Source of the DNA: a virus
Direction: 5' to 3' (one strand)
Virus record (IMG/VR): IMGVR_UViG_3300044631_000551
Coordinates: 20,439-84,438 of that record
DNA: 64,000 bases
Of the stretch, positions 1,528-21,755 are shown piece by piece (positions within the stretch are counted from its first letter, which is position 1; every line of letters starts with the position of its first letter). The translations under genes were made by a program, and so were the position numbers. The notes under the pieces are model-generated. The model was not told the DNA's origin, did not search any database, and worked only from the letters and a program-made list of their open reading frames with translations.

Positions 1528-4500
1528 TTACAATCCAACTTCTGTGCCTATTACTGCTGGTCCTTGATCCGGAAGTCCAGTCTGCGGATTGACTTGTGAT
1601 ATAGTCATAGGATTGGTTGCGTCGTAGAACAAATAATATCCAGCACCAATTATAGATGGAATATATCTCAAGGCTCCTTCTGGGATTCCAGCGCCAACAT
1701 TTCCTGGTCCTGCTTTTAGTGGTCCATCAAGAATAGTAACGACTGGAATCTGAGTTGGATCGCATGGTTTACATGGGTCTAGCGAAGTGCTATTAGTAAA
1801 GCTAATTGTTTTCTCTGTTGTAGCAAGAACAACCGCAGCAGAACTATAATATGTAGCTGTTACAGTAAGAGTTGTATTTGCTGGATTGCTCCAACCAATT
1901 CCTACAGAGCGACCGCCATTAGTTAATGCTTGGTTGCTTGTAATTGAAGCAGTACCGACGTTTGCTGCAGAGAAATTTGTACCAGACAAGCTTCCCGATG
2001 GAGCATTACCAACTACGCCAATAGTCACATAGCCACCAGTTACACGATTGGCTGTCATATCGCCACGGAATTCTAGGTTGACCCAGTTGACTGCTTTTGC
2101 AGTTGAAGCGTCTGACATGTAGTAGCTGTTGTTGTTTCCAGATATTACATTTAACATGGTTAGTTTTAGGTCACCATCAGATTCAAACTTAGTCAACTGA
2201 ACTGGTTTTACAACTTCAGAAACAGTACTATTATTGCCACTAACTTTTAGTTTTACATAAACTGTTTCAACCATTGAAGGGAATGTAAATGTAATGTCTG
2301 ATGGATTTTGTACTGAAGAATTAGCAGAACTTGGTGTTACACAACCAGTTGAACATTGAACGAAAGTCCATTCCCATGCAACAGGTGCTTCAAGAGTTGA
2401 ACCTTCTGGAGCAATAACACCTCTATTTGTTCTATCAATAAATGATAAAGTATGAGAAGTTCCATCTTCGACAACCAATGTTCCGACAACATCAAAGTCA
2501 GCAACAATTAATGGAGTCTTTGGTACTAGTGGTGGTTCAACAACTGGATTTCCTGGAACTTCTTCGACAAGAGAAATTACAAATGCGCCAAGGGATCTTG
2601 AAGAAGGAGTGGCTGGAGATACGGTGTCAGTTACAGACAACACGTGGTTTCCTAGCGATAGATTTCCTGGAATTGTAGCAACTGCATACAACACGCCAGT
2701 TGAATCAGAATATAGAGCTTCGCCTTGTAGACCATCAACAGTTACATTTGAAGCGATCTTAGTTACACCATACGCGATATTTCCTGGCGTTGCCAACGAA
2801 GAATAGTCAACGTTATCTATGCTAATGTAATGTCTAGTCGATGGTTTTAATCCGCGAGCAATTAACTTAACAGTTCTATTCATAGGATAGATATACTGTT
2901 CGTTGTATTGAGTGGTCGTAGGTGTAACCGTCATAGTTGTTACAGGATATTTTAACGATTGCTCAACGTCAGCAAATCTTGTCTTATCTAGTTCTACAGC
3001 ACCGCTATCATATTTGTCATTAGGATCAATTGCGATTTCGCGAGTGGCATATTCCTGAGAAATAAACTTAGTATTTGCATCGTAGCCAACAGTTACAAAG
3101 TTCTTACTGTAGCTGATGTTATTAGCTGTATCTCTAATTACTGAAGTAGATGTGCTATTTGCATTGTTAATTTCAATCTCAACTGTTTCAGTAGAAACCA
3201 TTGGACGACCGATACCAGTTGTTGGGTCGATCACGATTGTGTGCTCTGCATCACCTAGTCTTGCTAGGTTATGATTATCAAATGGATCAACGAAGAAACC
3301 ATTTTTGAAGCGATCTACGCCATTAGTATCTGGGATATTTAACTGAGTAGCTTTTTGCTCTAAGCGAGTTAGAGTGGTAAAATACTCAAGAGAAGAAACG
3401 CGCTGGTCGATAGCAGCAATATCTTTCATTCTATAACGCTTATTAGAAATAGGCGAGATATTCATTGTGTAAGGCGCATTAATTACGTACTGCGATTCAG
3501 CAACAGTCAATGAAGGATATGGTGGAATATAAGTTGTCGCTACAACCATCTGGTCGTCAGACTCTGCTCTTGGCGCACGAGGGACTATTGCAGATTCGCC
3601 CTCTACAACTTCAAATACACCCTTAGAAGTTAGAACAACAACATCACGACGAGGTAGATAATAAGTTAGATTACATTCAAAGTTTTGACCAGGATATGGA
3701 TTGTAATCAGTTGTACCTGAATTAAACAGTGTCGCTGGCGGTGGGTTGACTGTTGTTGCCGAAGCATTAGAAGTCAAGTTCGCTGTATTTGCTCGATATG
3801 GACGGAAATCAATAGAATCACGCAAAGCAAAACGACGGTTGCGTGTAGCAGAATAGTAAGAAGGAATTTCCCAAGTCCTTACATACTGCGAAGTGTTTGC
3901 GCCGATAGCGTCATTTACGCTATAAGACTCAACCGAGAAGAAGCCTTTACCAAGAGTAGCATTAGCAGCGAAACAATCAAAGTCAACGATTAGATACGAG
4001 TTTGAAAGATTAGCAGTAGATTTAGGATATAGAACTGCGTGGTCATAGTGCGTATCACGCTGACCGAAATCGTATGTAAAGAATTGTTTGATATCGCTAA
4101 CAGCTTGATTGTTATCTGAGTTTAAATCTTTAGTTTTTGAGACGCGGTTAATTTTAAGCACGTCTGGAACACCAAGATTAAATCCATAAGGATGAACGAT
4201 CTCGTAAGTATTAGCTGATAGACTTGTAGAGAATGCAGTATCTACAGAAAGTTGGGTTGTGTTGGCGATAGCTGTAACTTTCTTAGTTTCGCCATTTGCT
4301 TTAATATAGTTACCAACCTTGAAATCGGTACTAAATGCAGTAGAAGTACCAGTTACAGTATTTCCTGAAGTAGCAATAGCACCAGCAAGCGAACCATTGT
4401 AGAAACGGACTAATTGGTTGCGTTTAATTTCTTTGGCGATTGGGCGAGCGTTAGACTTTCTAGCGTAAGCATTAACTTTAATAGCTGTCGCGCCAGAAGC

Positions 4501-7011
4501 AGTAAAGTCAGGTCCAAGATCAACAGTTAAACTTTGTAGAGTTGAGTTTAACGCAATTGTTCTGTTGCTTGTAGACAAACTAATAATAGAACCTTTCTCG
4601 TGGAAACGAGCATAGGTATTTGCTACAGCAGCTGCACCGTGAGCAGTTCTTGTTGTCATCGTAGTATTACTTACGATCGAGTTTACGATTACTGCAGTAT
4701 TTCCTGCTACTGTAATCTTCTCACCTACAACAAAATCACGCTGGAAGAATGTGCTAGTTCCAGTAATGGTGGTTGTAGTAGAGTTAGCAACAGAAACTGT
4801 ACCACTTAGATTTACAGTCGTTAGAGCTGCACCAGTAAGAACGATATCTACTTTTTCTTCAGAGAAATCGGTGTTATCTGAGAAGCCAAAGAACGAACCA
4901 CCGTCGGTTAAGCTGATAGTTGTAGTACCATTGTTTGCTAGGGAAGCATCAATAGAAGCATTGTAATAGAACTCGGTATCAGAATCGCCTTGTTCATTTC
5001 TTAGATCTCTGACAGCGCGATTCGTTAAACCAAATACGAGGGCTGTGTAGTCAGTAGCTTCTAGCTTAGGATCGACAAACCCATCAATAGTTAAGTTTAC
5101 AGTTAAGCCTGTACCCGAACCGCCTGTAACAGCAGCGCCAGACAATGTTGGATTGGCAGTATATTTACCACCCTGAATTAGAGAAATAGATGTGACGTTG
5201 CCTGAAGCATTGTTTACCGTTATAAGTGCAGTCGCAGAGTCACCAAGACCACCACTTACTGTAACAATGTCACCATTTGTATATCCACCACCGTTGGCAG
5301 AAATAGTAGCAGTGTAAACAGAGTTAGCGAGTTGCGAAACAGCAACGTCAGCAAACGCATTAGCAGTATTGGCATATACAATAGAACGAACTTTATTAAA
5401 GTTTTGATTTTCGTTCATCTTGACATTAAACAGATACATGTTGTATTGTGCTAATGGAGCACCTTTGTCTGCGCTGTCGGTATCATAAACTAGGTTACGA
5501 ATATTAGCTGTACCAATAACAGTACCAGTAGCAGAACTTGTTGAATTCAAGCTGGCAGTAATAGCATTCTGGAATGAATCATATAGATTTACTGAAGCCG
5601 ATTGGTCAGCTGGGAAATATCCACGAAGTTCTTCAACAGGAATGTAGCTACCATAATTCATTGAAACAATTTGTTGTACTGGTGATTCAGTATCAACACC
5701 GCGACGAGAACTCAATACTTGGTTTGACTTAAAGTCAACAGCATTACCACGAACATATGCTTTACCAGCACCGATGTCATAGTAGAATTCTTGAGTATTG
5801 GCGGATGGTTTAGAAGTAATGGTAAAGTCTTTTACAGTATAGTGACCTGACTCATCATATGTACGCTGAGCCATTTCTTGGCCAACTGCGCCACCAACAG
5901 AAGTGTTATTCCATCTTAGAATATTGTCTGGACCAAATTCAGCCACAGCAAAGAATACTTCAGTATTAGGAAGTGCAGTTTTCGCATAAGAAACGAAATT
6001 AGTTTCTAGTTTTAGTCGGTGTGCGCCAGGAGCTGCGCCATTTGATAAGTCAGCAGAGTTATCATACAACGAAGAATCAGCAAATTCGTCTACTATCGTT
6101 TCGGTTGTTTCCATACCAACGATAATACCATTAGCAGCAGAAGGACCACCAGCCGAAGCATTTAGAATTAGAGTTTGTGTATCTGTCTTTACGAAGAAAC
6201 CTTTTTGATACACAATACCTTCTGAGACGCTTAGAGCATAAGCATTACCAACGCCAGTATATCTGTTATCACCAGGAGTTGTAAGAATAGTTGTGTTTGC
6301 TAGATTATTGCTAAAATTAAGCTCGATTGCAGATACAGTCGTACTTACAGATGTGTTAGATAGAAGTTGAATTGTTTCTCCAACAGTAAAATCTTTTCTA
6401 ACATTAGTAATAGTAATTTCGTTAGAGGTAGTATTGGCAGCTGTGATTAAACCACGAGCATCAGAAGTTGTACCTCTAATACGACCATTTACAGCAAAAT
6501 TGGTAGCATTAGCAACAGTAATGACTGATGTTCCGAGATAAGATTTATCTTCGCCATAAATTACAATAGATTCGCCTTCTTGGAATCCGCTAATACCGTT
6601 CTTACCAGTAGAAGTATATTTTACAAAAAACTTTGATGGTTCTGCGGATGCAGCAAAGCCAAGTTCGCCTTTTAGAATTCTAGCTTGAACGCCAGAGTTA
6701 GCGCCATAAAGAATAGCGCCAACATAAGAAGTGTTAGAAGCATTAAATGTAGTATTAGAATCAGGAACAGCAACATATACAGCATCAGGAATTACTGTCG
6801 GAGCACAGCCCTTAATGATACTGCCTTGCTTGAACACGCCATCGCCAAATCGTTCGATTTGGTTTTGTAGAATAGTTTGAAGCTGAGTTAATTCTCTAGC
6901 TTGAACTGGAAATGATGGTCTAAACAATACTCGATGAAACTTTTTGGTTTCATCAAAATCGTCATAGTATGGTGCCGACGCTAGAGTTGTGTTTGCAATA
7001 TCAGCTGACAT
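1528..7011 (-). CDS. DUF4815/VrlC-like baseplate-associated structural protein (N-terminal part) with PKD/Ig-like C-terminal domain
   Basis: APYYDDFDETKKFHRVLFRPSFPVQARELTQLQ N-terminus, APGAHRLK, RTYDESGHY, DRFKNGFFVDPF; PKD-like ADF..SFIDRT..WEWTF..SSVQNP. Confidence 0.8.
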   Translation of the reverse strand: MSADIANTTLASAPYYDDFDETKKFHRVLFRPSFPVQARELTQLQTILQNQIERFGDGVFKQGSIIKGCAPTVIPDAVYVAVPDSNTTFNASNTSYVGAILYGANSGVQARILKGELGFAASAEPSKFFVKYTSTGKNGISGFQEGESIVIYGEDKSYLGTSVITVANATNFAVNGRIRGTTSDARGLITAANTTSNEITITNVRKDFTVGETIQLLSNTSVSTTVSAIELNFSNNLANTTILTTPGDNRYTGVGNAYALSVSEGIVYQKGFFVKTDTQTLILNASAGGPSAANGIIVGMETTETIVDEFADSSLYDNSADLSNGAAPGAHRLKLETNFVSYAKTALPNTEVFFAVAEFGPDNILRWNNTSVGGAVGQEMAQRTYDESGHYTVKDFTITSKPSANTQEFYYDIGAGKAYVRGNAVDFKSNQVLSSRRGVDTESPVQQIVSMNYGSYIPVEELRGYFPADQSASVNLYDSFQNAITASLNSTSSATGTVIGTANIRNLVYDTDSADKGAPLAQYNMYLFNVKMNENQNFNKVRSIVYANTANAFADVAVSQLANSVYTATISANGGGYTNGDIVTVSGGLGDSATALITVNNASGNVTSISLIQGGKYTANPTLSGAAVTGGSGTGLTVNLTIDGFVDPKLEATDYTALVFGLTNRAVRDLRNEQGDSDTEFYYNASIDASLANNGTTTISLTDGGSFFGFSDNTDFSEEKVDIVLTGAALTTVNLSGTVSVANSTTTTITGTSTFFQRDFVVGEKITVAGNTAVIVNSIVSNTTMTTRTAHGAAAVANTYARFHEKGSIISLSTSNRTIALNSTLQSLTVDLGPDFTASGATAIKVNAYARKSNARPIAKEIKRNQLVRFYNGSLAGAIATSGNTVTGTSTAFSTDFKVGNYIKANGETKKVTAIANTTQLSVDTAFSTSLSANTYEIVHPYGFNLGVPDVLKINRVSKTKDLNSDNNQAVSDIKQFFTYDFGQRDTHYDHAVLYPKSTANLSNSYLIVDFDCFAANATLGKGFFSVESYSVNDAIGANTSQYVRTWEIPSYYSATRNRRFALRDSIDFRPYRANTANLTSNASATTVNPPPATLFNSGTTDYNPYPGQNFECNLTYYLPRRDVVVLTSKGVFEVVEGESAIVPRAPRAESDDQMVVATTYIPPYPSLTVAESQYVINAPYTMNISPISNKRYRMKDIAAIDQRVSSLEYFTTLTRLEQKATQLNIPDTNGVDRFKNGFFVDPFDNHNLARLGDAEHTIVIDPTTGIGRPMVSTETVEIEINNANSTSTSVIRDTANNISYSKNFVTVGYDANTKFISQEYATREIAIDPNDKYDSGAVELDKTRFADVEQSLKYPVTTMTVTPTTTQYNEQYIYPMNRTVKLIARGLKPSTRHYISIDNVDYSSLATPGNIAYGVTKIASNVTVDGLQGEALYSDSTGVLYAVATIPGNLSLGNHVLSVTDTVSPATPSSRSLGAFVISLVEEVPGNPVVEPPLVPKTPLIVADFDVVGTLVVEDGTSHTLSFIDRTNRGVIAPEGSTLEAPVAWEWTFVQCSTGCVTPSSANSSVQNPSDITFTFPSMVETVYVKLKVSGNNSTVSEVVKPVQLTKFESDGDLKLTMLNVISGNNNSYYMSDASTAKAVNWVNLEFRGDMTANRVTGGYVTIGVVGNAPSGSLSGTNFSAANVGTASITSNQALTNGGRSVGIGWSNPANTTLTVTATYYSSAAVVLATTEKTISFTNSTSLDPCKPCDPTQIPVVTILDGPLKAGPGNVGAGIPEGALRYIPSIIGAGYYLFYDATNPMTISQVNPQTGLPDQGPAVIGTEVGL

Positions 7012-8754: not shown

Positions 8755-11700
8755 TTATGGGTTTGTGTTTAGCACTGTGTCAATGACAGTGTCAAAAACG
8801 GTATCTGTATCAACAACTGTTACATAAGCAGTGGCTGACGAAGTATTTATAGCGGTTGATGTAGACTTCTGAGTATTAAACTTAGTAGAAATCGCTGTTG
8901 TATATTGCGTAGCATTCAACACAGTTCCAGTCAAATTAAACAGCGTATCTGTATAGAACTTCGTATCAAAAGTTGTATTTTTAGTTGTTGATGTTTCTTT
9001 GTTGGTAGAAATTGTAGTATTTAAAGCTGTATCATAAGTGGTTACAATAGTTGTTAGGCTCTTAGTCTGAGTTGCGTAAGTCGTTGATTTACTGGTATCA
9101 GTATTATACGCTGTTGTTATTGTCGTATCATAAACTGACGATGTCGATTTACTTGTGGCAGTAGACTTAGTTGTATCAGTATTGAATACTGTAGAAGTAG
9201 AAGCAACAGTTGCGCTGATCTTGGTGGTATCAGTATCAAATACCGTGCTGGTAGACTTGGTCGTAGCGGTATCAATAGCAGTATCTGTATTAAATACAGT
9301 CGAAGTCGACTTCGAAGTCGCAGTCGCTATATTTGTAGCGATCTTAGTATCAGTCGACTTGCTTGTTGATGTCGAATATGCAGTAGCAGTATCGTAAATA
9401 GAAATTGTTTCATATACTGTCGAGAAAGTTGAATCAGTTTGAACAATCGTTGCTGTATTTATGGTAGTATCAGTAGACTTCGATGTTCCTTTCGTAGTTT
9501 CGAACGTAGTTCCTTTACTTGTTGTAGTTAAGAATACTGTATCAAATAATGACTGAGTATTGTAAACTGTAACATATGATGTTAATGTATTGAATACTGT
9601 GCTGGTTAGCGCAGAAGTTGAAGTAGACTTGCTCGTTGATCCAGTTGTGCTAATGGCGGTGTCGCGCGCAGTATTTGTTTGGAACAATGTAACTGTATCG
9701 AATATAGTTGATGTTGCAAACGTTGTATTAAACGCAGTCGTAGTATCAAACACAGAAGAAGTTGATTTACTTGTTCCAGTTAGCGCAGAAGTATCAAATG
9801 TCGAAGCCGTGGCGAACACTGTATTGAATGCGGTTGTGGTATCAAACACAGTAGCATAAGTTGTTAGCGTCGCATAGATTGTAGCGAAACCAGTCGTAGT
9901 CGCGTATGCGGTAGTACGAGAAGTGGCAGTCGCTTTGTTAGTATCATATGCAGTTTCAAACGCAGTCGAAGTATCGAACACGCTAGTTGTTGCCTTAGAT
10001 GTGCTAACTGTGGTATCGGTTGATTTGCTGGTTCCAGTAGACTTAGAAGTTGAAGCAGCTGTTTCTGTCGCTTTAGAAGTAGAAGTCGCTTTAGAAGTAG
10101 AAACCACAGTATCAAACGTTGTATCATACGTGGTCACATAAGTCGTAGTTGTATCAAACAACGTCGTGGTAGATCTAGAAGTACCAATTGTGGTATCTGT
10201 TGATTTGCTGGTAGAAGTCGACTTAGAAGTCGAAGCAGATGTTCCAGTTAAATTCGAAGTAGCAGTAGACTTAGATGTAGAATTTGTAGTGTCAAACGTA
10301 GTATTATATGCAGTTACAAATGCTGTCGTTGTATTAAACACAGTCGTAGTCGACTTAGAAGTACTCCTACCCGTTTCTATTGTAACCTCTTCTTTAGTTT
10401 CTGCATCGATAAAAGTGGTATCATATGCAGTAACATAAATCGTAGTTGTAGATTTAGAAGTACTCGTTGCTTTAGAAGTCGTCGCACTTGTTGCTGCAGA
10501 TGTATTAAACGTAGTGTTAAACGTTGTTGTCGTGTTAAACGCGGTAGTTGTATTAAACAACGTTAAGTATGCAGTTGTAGTGTTAAACACAGTCGTAGTG
10601 GCATACGCAGTATCATATAAAGTCGAAGTAGACTTAGAAGTCCCTGTCGTCTTAGAAGTTAATTTAGACGTAGAACCTGTAGTATTAAACGTTGTATCAA
10701 ACGTTGTTGTAGTATTAAACGTTGTTGTGGTGTTAAATACAGTCAAGAAAGTTGTAGTCGTATCATATGCAGTTGTTGTTGCGTATGCTGTATTGAACGT
10801 CGTCGTCGTGCTTCTCGAAGTACTGGTAAATCTATTAGTACCAATTTGTGTTAGATACGTCGTTGTTGTATTAAACGCAGTAGAGATCGTGGTGTCAGTA
10901 GATTTTGACGTTTCTTTGGTTGTCTCTGTGGCTTTACTTGTTTGAGCACTGGTGCTTGTAGACTTAGTGGTCGAACCAGTAGTATTAGTTTCAATTGTTG
11001 TACCATACACAGTAGTTGTATTAAACAACGTGGTCGTTGATTTTGAAGTCGCCGTTGCTTTTGAAGTGGCGCCAGTCGTATCAGTTGACTTACTTGTTGC
11101 TGTTAAAGCAGAAGTTTGTGTTGAGAAAACAGTTTGATATGCTGTATCAAACGTAGTATTATATGTTGTAGAAGTAAACGCACCGCTACCAGTAGTTGTT
11201 AGTTTACTTGTTGCCGTTGAAGCAGAAGTTTCTTTACTTGTAGAAGTATCGCGTTCGGTAATCTTTGAAGTATTAGTGCTAAAGAACGTATCAAAAGCAG
11301 TATCATATTTCGTAGTGTAAGAAGTCGTCGTAGCATACGCTGTCGAGGTATCGTAAACCGAGTTAGTTAGACGCTTAGTAGAACGATTTGTGTCTGTATA
11401 AACCAACGTTGCAGTCGCAATAGTTGTGTCGGTATTAAACACAGTAGTGGTCGCAATGGCAGTATCAAATATGGTCTGAGTATTAAACACAGAAGTTGTA
11501 GATTTACTGGTAGCAGTTACATATGCTGTCGTTGTGTTAAATGTACTTGTTGTAGATTTATTAGTCGATGTAGCATATGCAGTTATAGTGTCAAAAACTG
11601 ATGACGTAGATTTATTTGTTGCAGTGGCAAATGTCGTTGTTGTATCGTATGCAGTCGTGGTCGTTTTACCAGTACCATATGCAGTAGATTTTGACGTTTG

Positions 11701-14700
11701 AGTTGCAAACTTAGTATCAATCGTTGTAGAAGTATACAACGCAGTCGCTGTTAAAAAATTAGTGGCAAATGCTGAATCGGTGTACTTAGCAGTTCTATAA
11801 TTTGTATCAGACAAATATTCAGTTGTAGTGTTTGTAGATTTTGAAGTACCTGTTTCCGTTGAAACTGCAGTTGAATATGCTGTACCAAGCGCAGTTTGCT
11901 TAAATGTATCTGTCGACTTAGAAGTATCTTTATTAGTTGCATAAGAAGTTGCAACTGTTGTCAATACTTCGCCAGTTGTAAAATATGTCTGAACATCTGT
12001 TGGACGCGACGTCGCAACCTTAGTAATGATATCAGTTTGTTTATTTGTCAGCGTAGTTACATCTGTGTCTAAAGTCGTGTCTTTGAACTTGGTATTGTAA
12101 AAAGTTGCAAACTCAGTTTGGAACGAAGTATCATAAATCGTGTTGATAGTAGTCAACAGATTTGTCATAAATGTCGTGCCAGTAAACTTCTGCGTGTCGA
12201 CTGTGGTATCTTTTGAAGTAGCATACGCAGTTGTAGTCGCAATCTTTGTTGCGTACGCTGTTAAGAATACAGTTGTTGTTACGCCAGCAGTTCGAGTGGC
12301 TCTGGTCGTCGCATATGCAGTTTGAACTATTGTACCAGCACCACTGTCTGTAGAGATCTTAGTATCAAACGTGGTGGTCGTATTTGTAAAGTAGCTGGTA
12401 ACAGTAGCAGTTACTGGTAGAGTATCAATTGTTATGGCTGTATCTACTAACGTATTTGTGTCATACGTTGTTGTTGTGGACACACTAGTATCAAATTTTG
12501 TAGTACGAGTTGTATCAATCGTAGTATCAGTATTGTAATTGGTAGTGGTATTAATTGTTGTATTGACTAGAGTTCCGCCACTGGTATTAAAAATTGTATC
12601 GTATGTGGTAGAATAACTTGAGTTGATAGCTGTGCTTCTAGACGTGGCAAAAGCAGAAGTTTCTGATACTGTAACTTCTTTTGAACAAGAGTAAGACCAG
12701 ACTCCAGGAGGAGCGTCATTAAGGAAAATACAATCATCAAATGTAAATCCTTTCGCAGCAGCATCCGCTATCGCAGCATTTTGATTGACAAATCCAGTTT
12801 CACTAGCGGAAGTTGTAAATGTTGTATCTGCAGTTATACTTGTATCAAACACAGTTGTTGTGAAGAAGTTAGTTACAACAGATGTTTGGAAGTTAGTAGC
12901 AGCAACACCGCTTAGAGTACCGTAGCTGGTAGCAGTTGTTTTAGATGTGCCAGTCGCATACGCAGTAGCAAATTTAGTGCTTCTACTAGTATCATATACT
13001 GTAGCTGTACTCTTAGTCGTAGCTGTATCTCTAGCTTCTTGGCCAGCATACGTTGTGCTTGTATAAACAATTGTTCCTACAGCAGTATTAATTGCAGTGG
13101 CAGTAGTAATTAACGTGCTAAATGCAGTTGTTGTAGAGGTCGAAATTGCTGTTTCGAATGTGGTATCGATAGCAGTTTCGCGCTTTGTCAAGAACGAAGT
13201 TCCATATGCAGATGTGGTTAGATACTCCGTCGCAATTGTAGTCGCGCCAGCAGTTTCTGTAAATCTGCTTGTTGTAACACCAGTAGAAGTCGTAAGTGTT
13301 GTAGAAGTAGAAGTTAGATACTGAGTTTCTAGATAATCAATTAGAGCTTCTAGGGTGGTTCCACGAGAAACAGGAACAGATTGAATTACAGTTCTACCAA
13401 ATCTTTCCATACCAGCTGGATGCCACAAATCACGAAGAATGCTAGAATACTTGTTAAACGCAGTAACAGCTTGAACTTCGTATGAATATTCTTGGTAATA
13501 ATAATTGTCGTGAATATACTTGTCAGAGTTTAAGAAACCGCGAGTAGATTTAAAGAATCCTTCGCCCTTACCCTGACCAAGATAATCAATTGTACCTGTT
13601 GCAACATGCGAAGCATTCGTTACACTTGTTAGCGAAACAGTCGTATTGTTAGTGTAGCCAACACCAGAATTATAGATGGATACAGTAGAAACAGCACCAG
13701 GACCACTACCAGAAACGCCAGCAATATTTGCATTGAAACCGAGGAATCCGCCAGCTCCATCAGACAGACGAAGCGGATAAATTAAATTATCGACGATTGC
13801 TACGTTTACGTTTGCTTGATAACCACCACCAGGATTAATATTTGTTAATGTAGCAATTGTACCATAAGTGTAGGTGTTTAATGTAAAAATACCATTAAAC
13901 GCAGTCAAATATGTTGCAGATGTATTTGATGAAAATGCAGTATAAGCTGGGGCTGCAGCATTAATTTGAATACTAAGCGCGTTAGTAATTGGCGTAGAAG
14001 TCAAGTCAATTGTGCTTGTATTGCTTAATGATCCAACATCAAAAGACGCAACGCTGGTTGGCGTTTCGCCTAGTGATGGTGTAACTGTTTCAGAAGCAGT
14101 TAATGTAAAACCTGTACCACCATTTCTAATGTCAAAAGTTACAACACCTTGTAGTCTTTGCAGACCAGTTACAATGGCTTGACCATTTACACCATCACCG
14201 CCAACAACGTTGACGAGTTCACCAAGAGAAAAACCAGGAGAGCTACCGAGAACTTGAATGCTAGAAAGTGATCCGTAAACTTTTGGACTATCTGTAACTT
14301 CGATGCCCAAGTCGTCTATTACATCTAAATTGATAATTTCTTCATCTGCCGCAAATGTTCCGACAATGTCAGTAATATACAAAATATCGTGGCGCTGATT
14401 ACCAGTTACAAATACTTTATAATCATCTACGAAAGCTGTCGCCCCAGAAATGCGACCAGTAATCGTTTTACCGATATATGATGCAATGTTTGCATTATAT
14501 TCTAGCTCCAAGTATCTTGGAACAAGCCATTGTGAATCAGATGCACGGATTACGTCTGTTCCAGGAGAATAGACGTTAATGTCTTCGTTGAATAAAACGC
14601 GGAATAATAATTCTAAACCACGTTCTGTGCCTTTAGAAGAGTATAATTCTTTGATGTGTTTTTGTAGAAGACGTTTATCTGCAGCAACATCAAGCGGAAT

Positions 14701-14925
14701 ACCATGCATGTATTTTTTACGAAAATAATCTACGAACTCATCAAGAGTAGTATCAATATCGCGCCAAGTTGGTAGTCGACGAGCGTCGTAGATTACTTGA
14801 TTAGTTTGTTCTAACCACTCAAAATATGCTCTAACAAATGCAACGAAAGTTGGTCCTTCTTCTCGGTAGATAGAAGGAAACTGACTTTCAATGAGTGGAG
14901 AAATTAACTTCTCAAGGTCTTTCAT
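8755..14925 (-). CDS. gp7: baseplate wedge gp7-like protein with ~1500-aa Thr-rich self-complementary extension
   Basis: N-terminal ~530 aa has FVRAYFEWLE, KELYSSKGTE..LFRVLF and HDNYYYQEYSYEV..HPAGM motifs; lies between gp6 and gp8; remainder is T-x-(F/Y/K)-x repeats. Confidence 0.75.
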   Translation of the reverse strand: MKDLEKLISPLIESQFPSIYREEGPTFVAFVRAYFEWLEQTNQVIYDARRLPTWRDIDTTLDEFVDYFRKKYMHGIPLDVAADKRLLQKHIKELYSSKGTERGLELLFRVLFNEDINVYSPGTDVIRASDSQWLVPRYLELEYNANIASYIGKTITGRISGATAFVDDYKVFVTGNQRHDILYITDIVGTFAADEEIINLDVIDDLGIEVTDSPKVYGSLSSIQVLGSSPGFSLGELVNVVGGDGVNGQAIVTGLQRLQGVVTFDIRNGGTGFTLTASETVTPSLGETPTSVASFDVGSLSNTSTIDLTSTPITNALSIQINAAAPAYTAFSSNTSATYLTAFNGIFTLNTYTYGTIATLTNINPGGGYQANVNVAIVDNLIYPLRLSDGAGGFLGFNANIAGVSGSGPGAVSTVSIYNSGVGYTNNTTVSLTSVTNASHVATGTIDYLGQGKGEGFFKSTRGFLNSDKYIHDNYYYQEYSYEVQAVTAFNKYSSILRDLWHPAGMERFGRTVIQSVPVSRGTTLEALIDYLETQYLTSTSTTLTTSTGVTTSRFTETAGATTIATEYLTTSAYGTSFLTKRETAIDTTFETAISTSTTTAFSTLITTATAINTAVGTIVYTSTTYAGQEARDTATTKSTATVYDTSRSTKFATAYATGTSKTTATSYGTLSGVAATNFQTSVVTNFFTTTVFDTSITADTTFTTSASETGFVNQNAAIADAAAKGFTFDDCIFLNDAPPGVWSYSCSKEVTVSETSAFATSRSTAINSSYSTTYDTIFNTSGGTLVNTTINTTTNYNTDTTIDTTRTTKFDTSVSTTTTYDTNTLVDTAITIDTLPVTATVTSYFTNTTTTFDTKISTDSGAGTIVQTAYATTRATRTAGVTTTVFLTAYATKIATTTAYATSKDTTVDTQKFTGTTFMTNLLTTINTIYDTSFQTEFATFYNTKFKDTTLDTDVTTLTNKQTDIITKVATSRPTDVQTYFTTGEVLTTVATSYATNKDTSKSTDTFKQTALGTAYSTAVSTETGTSKSTNTTTEYLSDTNYRTAKYTDSAFATNFLTATALYTSTTIDTKFATQTSKSTAYGTGKTTTTAYDTTTTFATATNKSTSSVFDTITAYATSTNKSTTSTFNTTTAYVTATSKSTTSVFNTQTIFDTAIATTTVFNTDTTIATATLVYTDTNRSTKRLTNSVYDTSTAYATTTSYTTKYDTAFDTFFSTNTSKITERDTSTSKETSASTATSKLTTTGSGAFTSTTYNTTFDTAYQTVFSTQTSALTATSKSTDTTGATSKATATSKSTTTLFNTTTVYGTTIETNTTGSTTKSTSTSAQTSKATETTKETSKSTDTTISTAFNTTTTYLTQIGTNRFTSTSRSTTTTFNTAYATTTAYDTTTTFLTVFNTTTTFNTTTTFDTTFNTTGSTSKLTSKTTGTSKSTSTLYDTAYATTTVFNTTTAYLTLFNTTTAFNTTTTFNTTFNTSAATSATTSKATSTSKSTTTIYVTAYDTTFIDAETKEEVTIETGRSTSKSTTTVFNTTTAFVTAYNTTFDTTNSTSKSTATSNLTGTSASTSKSTSTSKSTDTTIGTSRSTTTLFDTTTTYVTTYDTTFDTVVSTSKATSTSKATETAASTSKSTGTSKSTDTTVSTSKATTSVFDTSTAFETAYDTNKATATSRTTAYATTTGFATIYATLTTYATVFDTTTAFNTVFATASTFDTSALTGTSKSTSSVFDTTTAFNTTFATSTIFDTVTLFQTNTARDTAISTTGSTSKSTSTSALTSTVFNTLTSYVTVYNTQSLFDTVFLTTTSKGTTFETTKGTSKSTDTTINTATIVQTDSTFSTVYETISIYDTATAYSTSTSKSTDTKIATNIATATSKSTSTVFNTDTAIDTATTKSTSTVFDTDTTKISATVASTSTVFNTDTTKSTATSKSTSSVYDTTITTAYNTDTSKSTTYATQTKSLTTIVTTYDTALNTTISTNKETSTTKNTTFDTKFYTDTLFNLTGTVLNATQYTTAISTKFNTQKSTSTAINTSSATAYVTVVDTDTVFDTVIDTVLNTNP

Positions 14926-20391: not shown

Positions 20392-21755
20392 CGTGCACCA
20401 TTTATCAAATCTTTTTCATATGCGTCTTTATACAAATCTACATAAGTTTGAAATATAGTACCTTTGATATTATGTTTTACAGCACCAACTATGAAGTCGC
20501 CAGATTGTCTATTTGAATTTTCGTCTTCTGTAATACCACTCTTAGCAGGAACATTTAGATTTAAGATATCTCCTGGTTTGATGTAAGGATTACCATAGAC
20601 TTCAATTGTTATTTTGGTTTGTTCTAACAATGCTCTTTGCGCGCGAGCATAGAGATATTTTTCTTCTAAATAATCATCACGTTCCCAAGCATTTTCGGAT
20701 ACGGCAATATACGAAGCTGGTGTAAAATCATATTTTAATCCTTGTGGATTCAAATCGACATTAGTAGCAAACACTGGATATTTCGTATCAAACGCGCTGT
20801 TCTTGCCTAGCAAGAATATGTTTTTACTATCTTTTTCATATTCAAATGTTTTGGTCGGTGTTTTAACTTCTCTGTTTATTAAATCGATTAACATTATCTC
20901 ACTTCTAAGCACACCAGAAGCAATCAAATCAAAGTAGTTTGAGTGTTCATATTGAGAAAGATACAATACTCGGAAGTAATCTTTTTCAACACTAGCATCA
21001 AGATCTGTATTGTTTCGTTCTGGATAAAACGTATATCTGAATGCTCTTTGTTTGTTGGCGTCGCTCGCAATAGATCTAGCAGTTTTTAACTTAAAACCCT
21101 GATAATCTTGATAAAAGAAGTATGTGCTATCATCAGATTGAGAAGATAACGACTGAGACAATAATCTAGATATAGCGTCGAATGGCTTTATCTGATTGAA
21201 GATAAATCCATTTTTAATGATATTCTTGCTGCTAATCCAGTCATCCCCAGTGCCAATTTTTTCTCTATCTGGCGGATCCTTTTTAACAAACCTAGACTCA
21301 ACGATTTGCTTGATGACATCCGAAGGTGTGCCTTCTGGATAAAACTTAATCAGTGGCCACGCGTTCGTTACAGCAGGAAAAGTATACGCAACAATATCAT
21401 ATACCTTTTCTTTTTGTGTTGTGGTTTGAATTGAATTTTCTATGTTTGTAATATAAAAATTCAATATAATTTTGTTTTCTATAGGATCATCTTGAAATTT
21501 GAATAGTGTTACTTCTATGACACTACCGAGAGATAAAAAGCCGTCGTCGACCAAATTTATACCATCTACCAACGATGCTTCTAAACTAATAGAATATCTA
21601 AGCAAAGATTGTTTTAATGATATAGAATTTATAAGTGTAGCGATACCAACGCCATCTTTTACTGACCTATCTTTTTTCAAAACAACAGAATAGCTAAATT
21701 CATTTACTGTATTGCTATTTTGCACGATGAGATGTGGCTTCAAACTCGTATCCAT
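20388..21755 (-). CDS. baseplate hub protein (gp27-like)
   Basis: Upstream of gp5; YFFYQDYQGFKLK, VYGNP.IKPGDILNL, SGDFIVGAVKHNI motifs. Confidence 0.65.
   Translation of the reverse strand: MDTSLKPHLIVQNSNTVNEFSYSVVLKKDRSVKDGVGIATLINSISLKQSLLRYSISLEASLVDGINLVDDGFLSLGSVIEVTLFKFQDDPIENKIILNFYITNIENSIQTTTQKEKVYDIVAYTFPAVTNAWPLIKFYPEGTPSDVIKQIVESRFVKKDPPDREKIGTGDDWISSKNIIKNGFIFNQIKPFDAISRLLSQSLSSQSDDSTYFFYQDYQGFKLKTARSIASDANKQRAFRYTFYPERNNTDLDASVEKDYFRVLYLSQYEHSNYFDLIASGVLRSEIMLIDLINREVKTPTKTFEYEKDSKNIFLLGKNSAFDTKYPVFATNVDLNPQGLKYDFTPASYIAVSENAWERDDYLEEKYLYARAQRALLEQTKITIEVYGNPYIKPGDILNLNVPAKSGITEDENSNRQSGDFIVGAVKHNIKGTIFQTYVDLYKDAYEKDLINGAR

Follow-up and report, generated by a model that had tools for sequence, protein, structure and literature searches.

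The baseplate wedge protein gp7 of phage T4 is present in one copy per wedge and hence in six copies per baseplate. Described members of the T4 gp7 family (PF23786, PHROG 17744) carry no Thr-rich mirror extension: gp7 of phage RHph_I1_18 has 528 amino acids (aa) in total, and that of phage Cr30 has 767 aa and a tail with 4% Thr. The central sheet of OspA, tryptophan zippers and designed aromatic-Lys hairpins are stabilized by cross-strand aromatic/Lys and Thr/Thr pairs without a hydrophobic core. A fold-back topology was reportedly described for the T4 gp37 needle by Bartual et al. in 2010. Here we analyze P0001, a gp7-like protein of 2056 aa encoded in a window of 64,000 nucleotides (nt; positions 20,439 to 84,438 of the IMG/VR virus record IMGVR_UViG_3300044631_000551). 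Its likeness to the gp7 family lies in the N-terminal ~530 residues and in the gp6 and gp8 flanks. The Thr-rich C-terminal extension bears two long arms that mirror each other, residue by residue, about a single centre, and we consider it likely that the chain folds back there, forming a beta ribbon of two strands that is extremely long and thin.

Mirror register and rung code

Aromatic residues directly opposite Lys or Arg were counted for ~2000 possible centres, with 250 offsets each. Centre 1510.5 is the sole outlier, having 29 such pairs against a mean of 3.3 (standard deviation 2.3); side peaks at ±30 residues from it reach 11-12 pairs at most. The arms are in perfect register at offsets 6 to 260 from the centre, and a sliding-window search found that the register resumes with a 2-residue shift past the pentapeptide GSGAF, continuing to residue ~1061 on the left and ~1958 on the right. 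Among ungapped mirror segments, the two with the highest scores reach 185.5 over 255 rungs and 128 over 185 rungs. The next best anywhere in P0001 score 65 and 62, and both are ±30-residue echoes of a local 60-residue repeat.

These arms had been read by hand in an earlier note on this DNA, outward from the turn FIDAETKEEV. Its irregular series of spacings between non-Thr key residues, a mix of 4 and 6 (4,4,6,6,4,4,4,4,6,6,4,6,6,...), was reproduced on both arms exactly as written, as was its list of pairs (F-I, Y-R, Y-K, K-F and onward). The 51 consecutive complementary pairs that it counted hold over the 255 rungs of the first segment, where 51 non-Thr/Ser key positions lie at the same offsets on both arms and 51/51 are complementary. 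The second segment of 185 rungs, with 31/33 complementary, bears out the proposed 2-residue bulge at GSG and the resumption of the register to ~440 residues per arm. Re-translation returned the coordinates of the turn exactly (FIDAETKEEV is residues 1505-1514, with Asp1507 at nt 10405-10407 of the minus-strand open reading frame 8755-14925). Other details need correction. A loose continuation of the register to ~480 residues is not confirmed, none being found beyond about 445 residues per arm; the centre lies between T1510 and K1511 rather than at Asp1507; and since i+j is constant about that centre, the residues pair directly opposite each other and not diagonally.

On the key face, the 128 rungs of the first segment comprise 77 T/S:T/S, 30 aromatic:K/R and 21 aromatic:other rungs, with no exceptions; the 90 rungs of the second comprise 57, 21 and 10 of these kinds, with two exceptions (88/90 obey). 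Key rungs of the non-Thr/Ser kind hold exactly one aromatic residue, whose partner is Lys or Arg or else is small or aliphatic. Residues on the other face are small and polar, Thr or Ser being opposite Ala, Asn, Asp or Val. Small polar side chains predominate on both faces, as would suit a structure that lacks a classical core.

The make-up of the key face also bears on a different arrangement, in which fold-back hairpins would be protomers of a bundle (three of them, like the T4 gp37 needle, or two face to face) with their aromatic faces packed together, giving a thicker and stiffer multi-stranded fibre. The key face is semi-hydrophobic, an aromatic recurring about every 5 residues among Thr methyls, and the strict rule of one aromatic per rung looks like a packing constraint. 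Moreover, a stalk that folds back and presents a tip is already known in the T4 gp37 needle, and the same stalk-plus-head layout is found in P0123, a second mirror protein of this genome described below. However, Lys or Arg is present in about 60% of the aromatic rungs and would be unfavourable in a closed core, the absence of His leaves no metal ladder, and phmmer found no sequence similarity to any PDB chain. A trimer fused to gp7 would, in addition, need contributions from three wedges, because T4 gp7 is present in one copy per wedge. In our opinion, such a bundle is unlikely, but it deserves to be kept in mind.

Controls on the mirror and reliability of the sequence

Permutation of the key identities (200,000 trials) gave a mean of 25.6 and a maximum of 41/51 complementary pairs, versus the 51 observed, and circular shifts, which keep the block structure, also gave at most 41/51. 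When the 4/6-residue units of one arm were shuffled with the T-x-X-x periodicity kept (n = 300), the mirror score was 35 ± 5.5 and at most 56, versus 185.5. The score at the centre exceeds these periodicity-preserving shuffles, a comparison proposed in the earlier note, by about 27 standard deviations.

The same controls address the possibility that the arms do not touch, each being part of a parallel beta-solenoid or other repeat fold, so that the mirror would be a by-product of internally symmetric tandem repeats. A 60-residue (180-nt) repeat with cyclically palindromic spacing does lie on both sides of the turn, with its side peaks at ±30. Those peaks, however, score 62-65 versus 185.5, and shuffling whole units, with the repeat grammar intact, gave no score above the maximum stated earlier. 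Autocorrelation of the aromatic and basic positions is at most 0.3-0.5, its best lags differ by arm and by protein, and no constant repeat period emerges; a parallel beta-solenoid or TxT antifreeze-like beta-helix has a constant coil length, and the spacings here are irregular. The matched indels, the swaps and the clean stem-loop indel described in the next section would also be left unexplained. This reading is largely refuted by the controls, and we hold it to be highly improbable.

Composition alone might give apparent symmetry if the region were a disordered, possibly O-glycosylated, mucin-like spacer. From residue ~540 to the end, P0001 is 35% Thr and 12% Ser, as such a spacer could be, but it is also 10% Phe+Tyr, and residues 531-2056 (1526 residues) include 5 Pro, no His and 152 Phe+Tyr. 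Mucin-like Pro/Thr/Ser regions are Pro-rich, contain few aromatics and have no position-specific conservation; here, unlike in disordered linkers, the even spacing and the position-specific code are kept through 40-60% divergence. We give a disordered spacer almost no credence. Even spacings together with this composition fit extended beta-strands.

A search of nt 8755-13300 for inverted repeats in the DNA found none beyond one 26-nt, 77% chance match, in keeping with the earlier placement of the code at the amino-acid level; since the DNA has no inverted repeat, the symmetry exists only in the protein. An origin of the mirror at the DNA level was considered and rejected: TTT (Phe) and AAA (Lys) are reverse complements, but there is no inverted repeat, and Thr:Thr rungs are impossible that way. 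The DNA of the Thr-rich region contains direct repeats only (60-80%), including the 180-nt period on both sides of the turn. That 60-aa repeat sits at mirror-related places, nt 10009-10364 (right arm, residues ~1521-1639) and nt 10502-10793 (left arm, ~1378-1475), which suggests that the stem may have grown by matched duplications in both arms.

At least 22 metagenome runs of lake water, dated 2018-2024, contain 96% or more of the words sampled from the window. Four lake-water runs (2018, 2020, 2023 and 2024) yielded contigs that tile the sequence with zero differences, one of them spanning 8933-11754, and it is therefore not an assembly artefact. Two RNA runs that share a small part of the words (0.13 and 0.06) were left out of account as evidence of expression or habitat. 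The source, judged from this recurrence, is a recurrent freshwater T4-like phage. Contig "joints" with short sides (22-32 nt) were also seen; they were read as cross-matches to other Thr-rich sequence and discounted as rearrangements. In lake run X13, one divergent contig (88% identical, depth 4.5) lacks a net 3 nt in the bulge codons, at nt 11178 and 11185. This would fit length tolerance at an unpaired site, a weak indication given by a single low-depth contig.

Mirror arms in related proteins

The gp7 of the cultured phage vB_SmaS-DLP_6 (DLP_6; AMQ65900.1, 1288 aa) is likewise rich in Thr towards its C-terminus, where a unique centre of its own lies at 974.5, with the turn YTNPGLSQY and about 290 rungs in register. 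This protein shares with P0001 the homologous core, the gp6-gp7-gp8 gene order, the unique mirror centre and the T:T and aromatic:basic/aliphatic rungs. It differs in using Arg for Lys, in its smaller number of rungs (about 290 versus 445), in its turn and in an extra globular insert before the stem, and its arms cannot be aligned by sequence with those of the window (the only phmmer match is P0021, E 4e-6). Neither the DLP6 genome paper nor the DLP_6 record mentions the mirror feature (PMC5349666).

Among 120 long metagenomic gp7-like proteins, only the DLP6-type group is Thr-rich (27-33% Thr), and 18/18 of its members have one dominant mirror each, of 109-319 rungs. Their arms are 38-88% identical to the DLP_6 arms. 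The turns differ in sequence and in length, from 4 aa (GGAA) to a 100-residue insert, and most are short (4-30 residues, e.g., GGAA or NPG). The earlier note had suggested looking in homologues for indels shared by the arms and for compensatory swaps of aromatic and basic residues, and both were found in the alignment of the 18 DLP6-type sequences. In four sequences each of the two arms is longer by 10 residues, and five others carry matched indels of about -46 and -56, and of +15 and +16. The aromatic side switches at 13 mirrored column pairs, for example from R:F to F:R at 788/1161 and from R:F to W:R at 898/1051; sliding the partner by 2-6 positions gives 0-6. The mirror code, its specificity and the co-evolution of both arms are direct observations.

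The closest relative of P0001 is the metagenomic protein P0004 (1308 aa), which is 68% identical in that half of the core where the two align. P0004 also matches residues 520-1075 (56%) and 1958-2054 (71%) of P0001 and has nothing that corresponds to 1076-1957, its right-flank homology (residues 899-995) following directly after its left-flank homology. By this comparison the whole stem-loop is a single insertion or deletion, whose two ends would meet at the stem base; a fold-back module permits gain or loss by a single indel because its ends are neighbours in space. In P0004, residues ~996-1308 comprise a PPPPPPP linker and then a domain of ~310 aa with repeated S-x-D-x-G-x-T-W motifs, which resemble BNR/Asp-box repeats; a Pfam search of this domain gave no match.

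A second mirror protein, P0123 (1202 aa), is encoded on the same contig upstream of the window. It consists of an N-terminal segment of 64 aa (ISLSSIALEFGG...SEYYRGG), an arm (65-527), a non-repetitive domain of 212 residues and another arm (740-1202). The metagenomic fragment P0124 (126 aa) shares its N-terminus. The two arms mirror each other without gaps over 463 residues, the second ending exactly at the C-terminus, and the 232 rungs of the key face comprise 136 T/S:T/S, 64 aromatic:basic and 28 aromatic:other rungs and 4 exceptions. Rung statistics are alike in the window gp7, P0123 and DLP_6 gp7. Cross-protein mirror scores between gp7 and P0123, by contrast, are at most 48.5 (background), versus self scores of 364 and 671; because the two codes do not cross-match, the code would act as an address and not merely reflect composition. 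Searches of Pfam, PHROG and PDB with P0123 and with its 212-aa head found nothing beyond a weak N-terminal match to PHROG 30374, and a search with P0123 against sequence representatives found DLP6-type arms only. A further Thr-rich protein (289 aa, 32% Thr; G000:C1:17507-18376, minus strand) lies 2.1 kb upstream of the window start, and its best ungapped mirror scores 37-38.

The code as such says only that residue i contacts residue c-i, in the same chain or in another, and an intermolecular zipper would obey it if the outgoing arm paired with the return arm of another identical chain, either in an antiparallel homodimer or between neighbouring wedges. Against this arrangement, the short turns of most homologues are ideal for a hairpin, the stem-loop is one insertable module with meeting ends, and P0123 has one compact domain between its arms, which stop right at the C-terminus. 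We consider an intermolecular zipper very unlikely.

Proposed fold-back ribbon

Positions with i+j constant are cross-strand neighbours in an antiparallel beta pair, and even spacing places residues on one face. We infer for the stem a beta conformation, intramolecular pairing and a monomeric state, as well as the length and function given below, and this fold-back reading is supported by the statistics and by the co-evolution of both arms. In the structure that we propose, the chain would emerge from the core, which is bound to the baseplate, and from the conserved base rich in Thr, run out as a beta-strand (residues 1061-1505), reverse in the 10-residue loop IDAETKEEVT and return antiparallel (1516-1958), so that residue i would lie across from 3021-i (3019-i below GSGAF); the last 98 residues would rejoin the base. 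On the key face, T/S:T/S rungs would alternate every 4/6 residues with rungs in which a single Phe or Tyr faces Lys, Arg, Ile, Val, Ala or Gly, and the aromatic rings would cover the aliphatic portion of a Lys, Arg or Ile on the opposite side of the ladder. The order of the 4/6 spacings and of the aromatic-bearing strand is aperiodic and could thus serve as an address, fixing one register and excluding slipped or foreign pairing. If fully extended, 445 rungs would measure about 145-150 nm (about 147-151 nm at 0.33-0.34 nm per residue), and each baseplate would bear six copies if T4 gp7 stoichiometry holds.

A fold-back hairpin is, in our opinion, the simplest structure compatible with the register, the one-aromatic rule, the Thr:Thr rungs, the short turns, the indels, the swaps and the modularity. 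As to its role, the stem would most likely serve as a fibre, long, thin and flexible, that makes the first contact with the host surface or senses it. A reach-out adhesion or sensing fibre is our best guess by analogy, because in P0123 a stalk of the same kind carries a head domain. The fuller proposition, that the ribbon of ~445 rungs (~150 nm) stands free, that its aperiodic code works as a barcode and that it represents a new, modular and addressable way of building a fibre, is in our estimate about evenly balanced.

Several points weigh against the proposed ribbon. Structure prediction neither supports nor refutes it: AlphaFold2 returned no usable model for residues 1361-1660 as a single sequence (predicted local distance difference test, pLDDT, 36.7), and for P0127 (1075 aa) with 17 homologues the pLDDT was 36.3 and about 25 in the Thr region. 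An unbiased search for complementary column pairs in the 18 homologues was dominated by the split of one subclade and yielded no contact map, and the co-evolution evidence carries the caveat that the homologue alignments consist of low-complexity sequence. A free two-stranded ribbon of about 150 nm has no precedent, and it might have to join an oligomer in order to bury its open edges and its semi-hydrophobic aromatic stripe. The mirror code fits pairing within a chain and pairing between antiparallel identical chains alike. The proposal leaves unexplained the Thr-rich stretch of 530 residues that precedes the stem (531-1060), and the tip of the gp7 hairpin carries no binding domain, which makes its function a guess. 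The only long strands of the P0127 model (603-618, 631-655, 948-972 and 985-1002) have position sums of 1603-1605, the protein's own centre sum being 1605; these mirror-related strands may be a weak hint of arm pairing.

A second long hairpin was sought in residues 540-1060, where a gapped mirror alignment was marginal (43.5 versus a null of 33 ± 4, maximum 43). Mirror searches of the stem base beyond 1061/1958 and of the equivalent P0004 region found no clear register. The base does contain a statistically modest short stem, in which residues 632-675 on the left match 784-827 on the right (nt 12445-13032) with 8 key rungs (Y:I, K:Y, Y:I, F:R, R:F, Y:V, K:Y and R:V). It encloses an insert of ~108 residues with the only two cysteines of the Thr region.

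Gene context and database searches

P0001 matches PHROG 17744 ("baseplate wedge subunit") with E 8.2e-132 over residues 2-276 and further stretches, and Pfam PF23786 with 33.9 bits (cut-off 27). The profile match and the place between gp6 and gp8 homologues confirm P0001, on sequence grounds, as a member of the gp7 family, and the fusion of the Thr-rich arms to gp7 posited in the earlier note stands on the same matches and neighbours (Table 1). The core is 35-43% identical to gp7 of its nearest cultured relatives, the phages DLP_6 (42%; host group Stenotrophomonas), RHph_I1_18 (Rhizobium) and Cr30 (Caulobacter). RHph_I1_18 gp7 stops where the core of P0001 ends, and the order gp6-gp7-gp8 matches that of DLP_6 and Cr30. 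Directly after the wedge genes, a protein of 1827 aa (1528-7011, minus strand) matches DUF4815 (PF16075) and PHROG 358; the DLP_6 counterpart in this position is annotated as "VlrC protein". An open reading frame of 143 aa lies antisense to the Thr-rich arm (10514-10945, plus strand); most likely it is no gene and arises mechanically from the ACN-rich codons of the opposite strand.

Table 1. Features of P0001, its neighbours and P0123; positions are those of the window unless a contig is named.
Feature	Residues	Position	Strand	Basis
P0001, gp7-like baseplate wedge protein with Thr-rich C-terminal extension	2056 aa	8755..14925	-	Open reading frame translation, PHROG, Pfam
gp7-like core	1-~530	13336..14925	-	PHROG and Pfam matches span residues 2-514
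Proximal Thr-rich base, with two-cysteine island at ~711-753	531-1060	11746..13335	-	56% identity to P0004 368-907
Outgoing arm, lower segment (partner 1774-1958, i+j=3019)	1061-1245	11191..11745	-	185 rungs, score 128
Bulge GSGAF, opposite just 3 residues (1771-1773); register shift 2	1246-1250	11176..11190	-	
Outgoing arm, upper segment (partner 1516-1770, i+j=3021)	1251-1505	10411..11175	-	255 rungs, score 185.5
Turn IDAETKEEVT; symmetry centre between T1510 and K1511	1506-1515	10381..10410	-	
Return arm, upper segment	1516-1770	9616..10380	-	Mirror search
SAL, facing the GSGAF bulge	1771-1773	9607..9615	-	
Return arm, lower segment	1774-1958	9052..9606	-	Mirror search
C-terminal base	1959-2056	8758..9051	-	71% identity to P0004 899-995
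Upstream neighbour, gp6-like baseplate wedge protein	597 aa	14925..16718	-	PHROG 219 (E 6e-167); Pfam Gp6-like_1st, Gp6_C-III
Downstream neighbour, baseplate wedge subunit in gp8 position	573 aa	7024..8745	-	PHROG 438 (E 1.8e-71)
P0123, Thr-rich	1202 aa	G000:C1:8384-11992 (L004:385-3993), 8.4 kb upstream of window start	-	Same contig (84 kb)

No entry of Pfam, PHROG or PDB covers the Thr-rich module. A phmmer search of residues 1061-2056 against all PDB chains gave no match at E <= 1, and one with the stem against 1.84 billion representatives gave only 2 weak matches; no deep alignment could be obtained, because composition correction removes Thr-rich matches. The window sequence is absent from the ESM Atlas, where DLP_6 gp7 has a single match (0.77) without a model. 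No such architecture was found described in the literature by full-text searches or in the DLP6 genome paper, which does not prove that none has been published. The earlier note knew of none either, and the mirror-coded fold-back architecture appears to be undescribed.

Comparison with known systems and significance

If the arms pair as coded, they embody a principle of fibrous proteins that has no described precedent, namely a hairpin of hundreds of residues held in a unique register by a pairwise code that can be read. With such a principle, viruses could make very long and thin fibres out of a single chain. It would also be modular, entire stem-loops being gained or lost, and addressable, with codes that do not cross-react between the proteins of one virion. 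It makes testable the questions of how a single-layer beta structure can be stable at this length, how a low-complexity sequence avoids slippage and what the thin appendages of environmental T4-like phages are made of. Rung types, spacings and bulges could guide the design of programmable beta nanofibres. The cultured phage DLP_6, which grows on Stenotrophomonas maltophilia and bears a version of ~290 rungs, offers an experimental handle. Mirror modules are probably under-counted in viral metagenomes, because profile methods and AlphaFold2 see nothing in them and composition filters discard Thr-rich sequence.

The T4 gp37 needle (PDB 2XGF) contains seven irons (PMC6957217). It resembles the proposed stem, and especially P0123 with its head, in that the chain runs out to a tip and back with both ends at the base. 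For the P0001 stem an out-and-back course, a topology read from the amino-acid sequence, is indicated by the mirror register and the P0004 indel. The needle is an intertwined trimer of about 15 nm with iron bound to His, whereas the stem would be about ten times longer. The HxH iron motifs of gp37 are absent from residues 531-2056 of P0001, as is any sequence similarity of the stem to gp37 or to a solved fibre, and its register would be set by a pairwise side-chain code.

The OspA sheet, the tryptophan zippers and the designed hairpins use the same types of pairs that fill the rungs of P0001. They have 10-30 residues per strand, as against about 445 in P0001, where the code is aperiodic, and there is no sequence relation between them. 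An analogy and no more is the alpha-helical coiled coil, which also builds a long rod from a simple positional code in low-complexity sequence; its mixed spacings (3/4, versus 4/6 in P0001) keep a single stripe of key residues against the partner strand. Coiled coils are periodic and differ in secondary structure, whereas the code of P0001 is aperiodic and specifies a single register; if the proposed pairing is true, the stem would be for beta-strands what the coiled coil is for helices.

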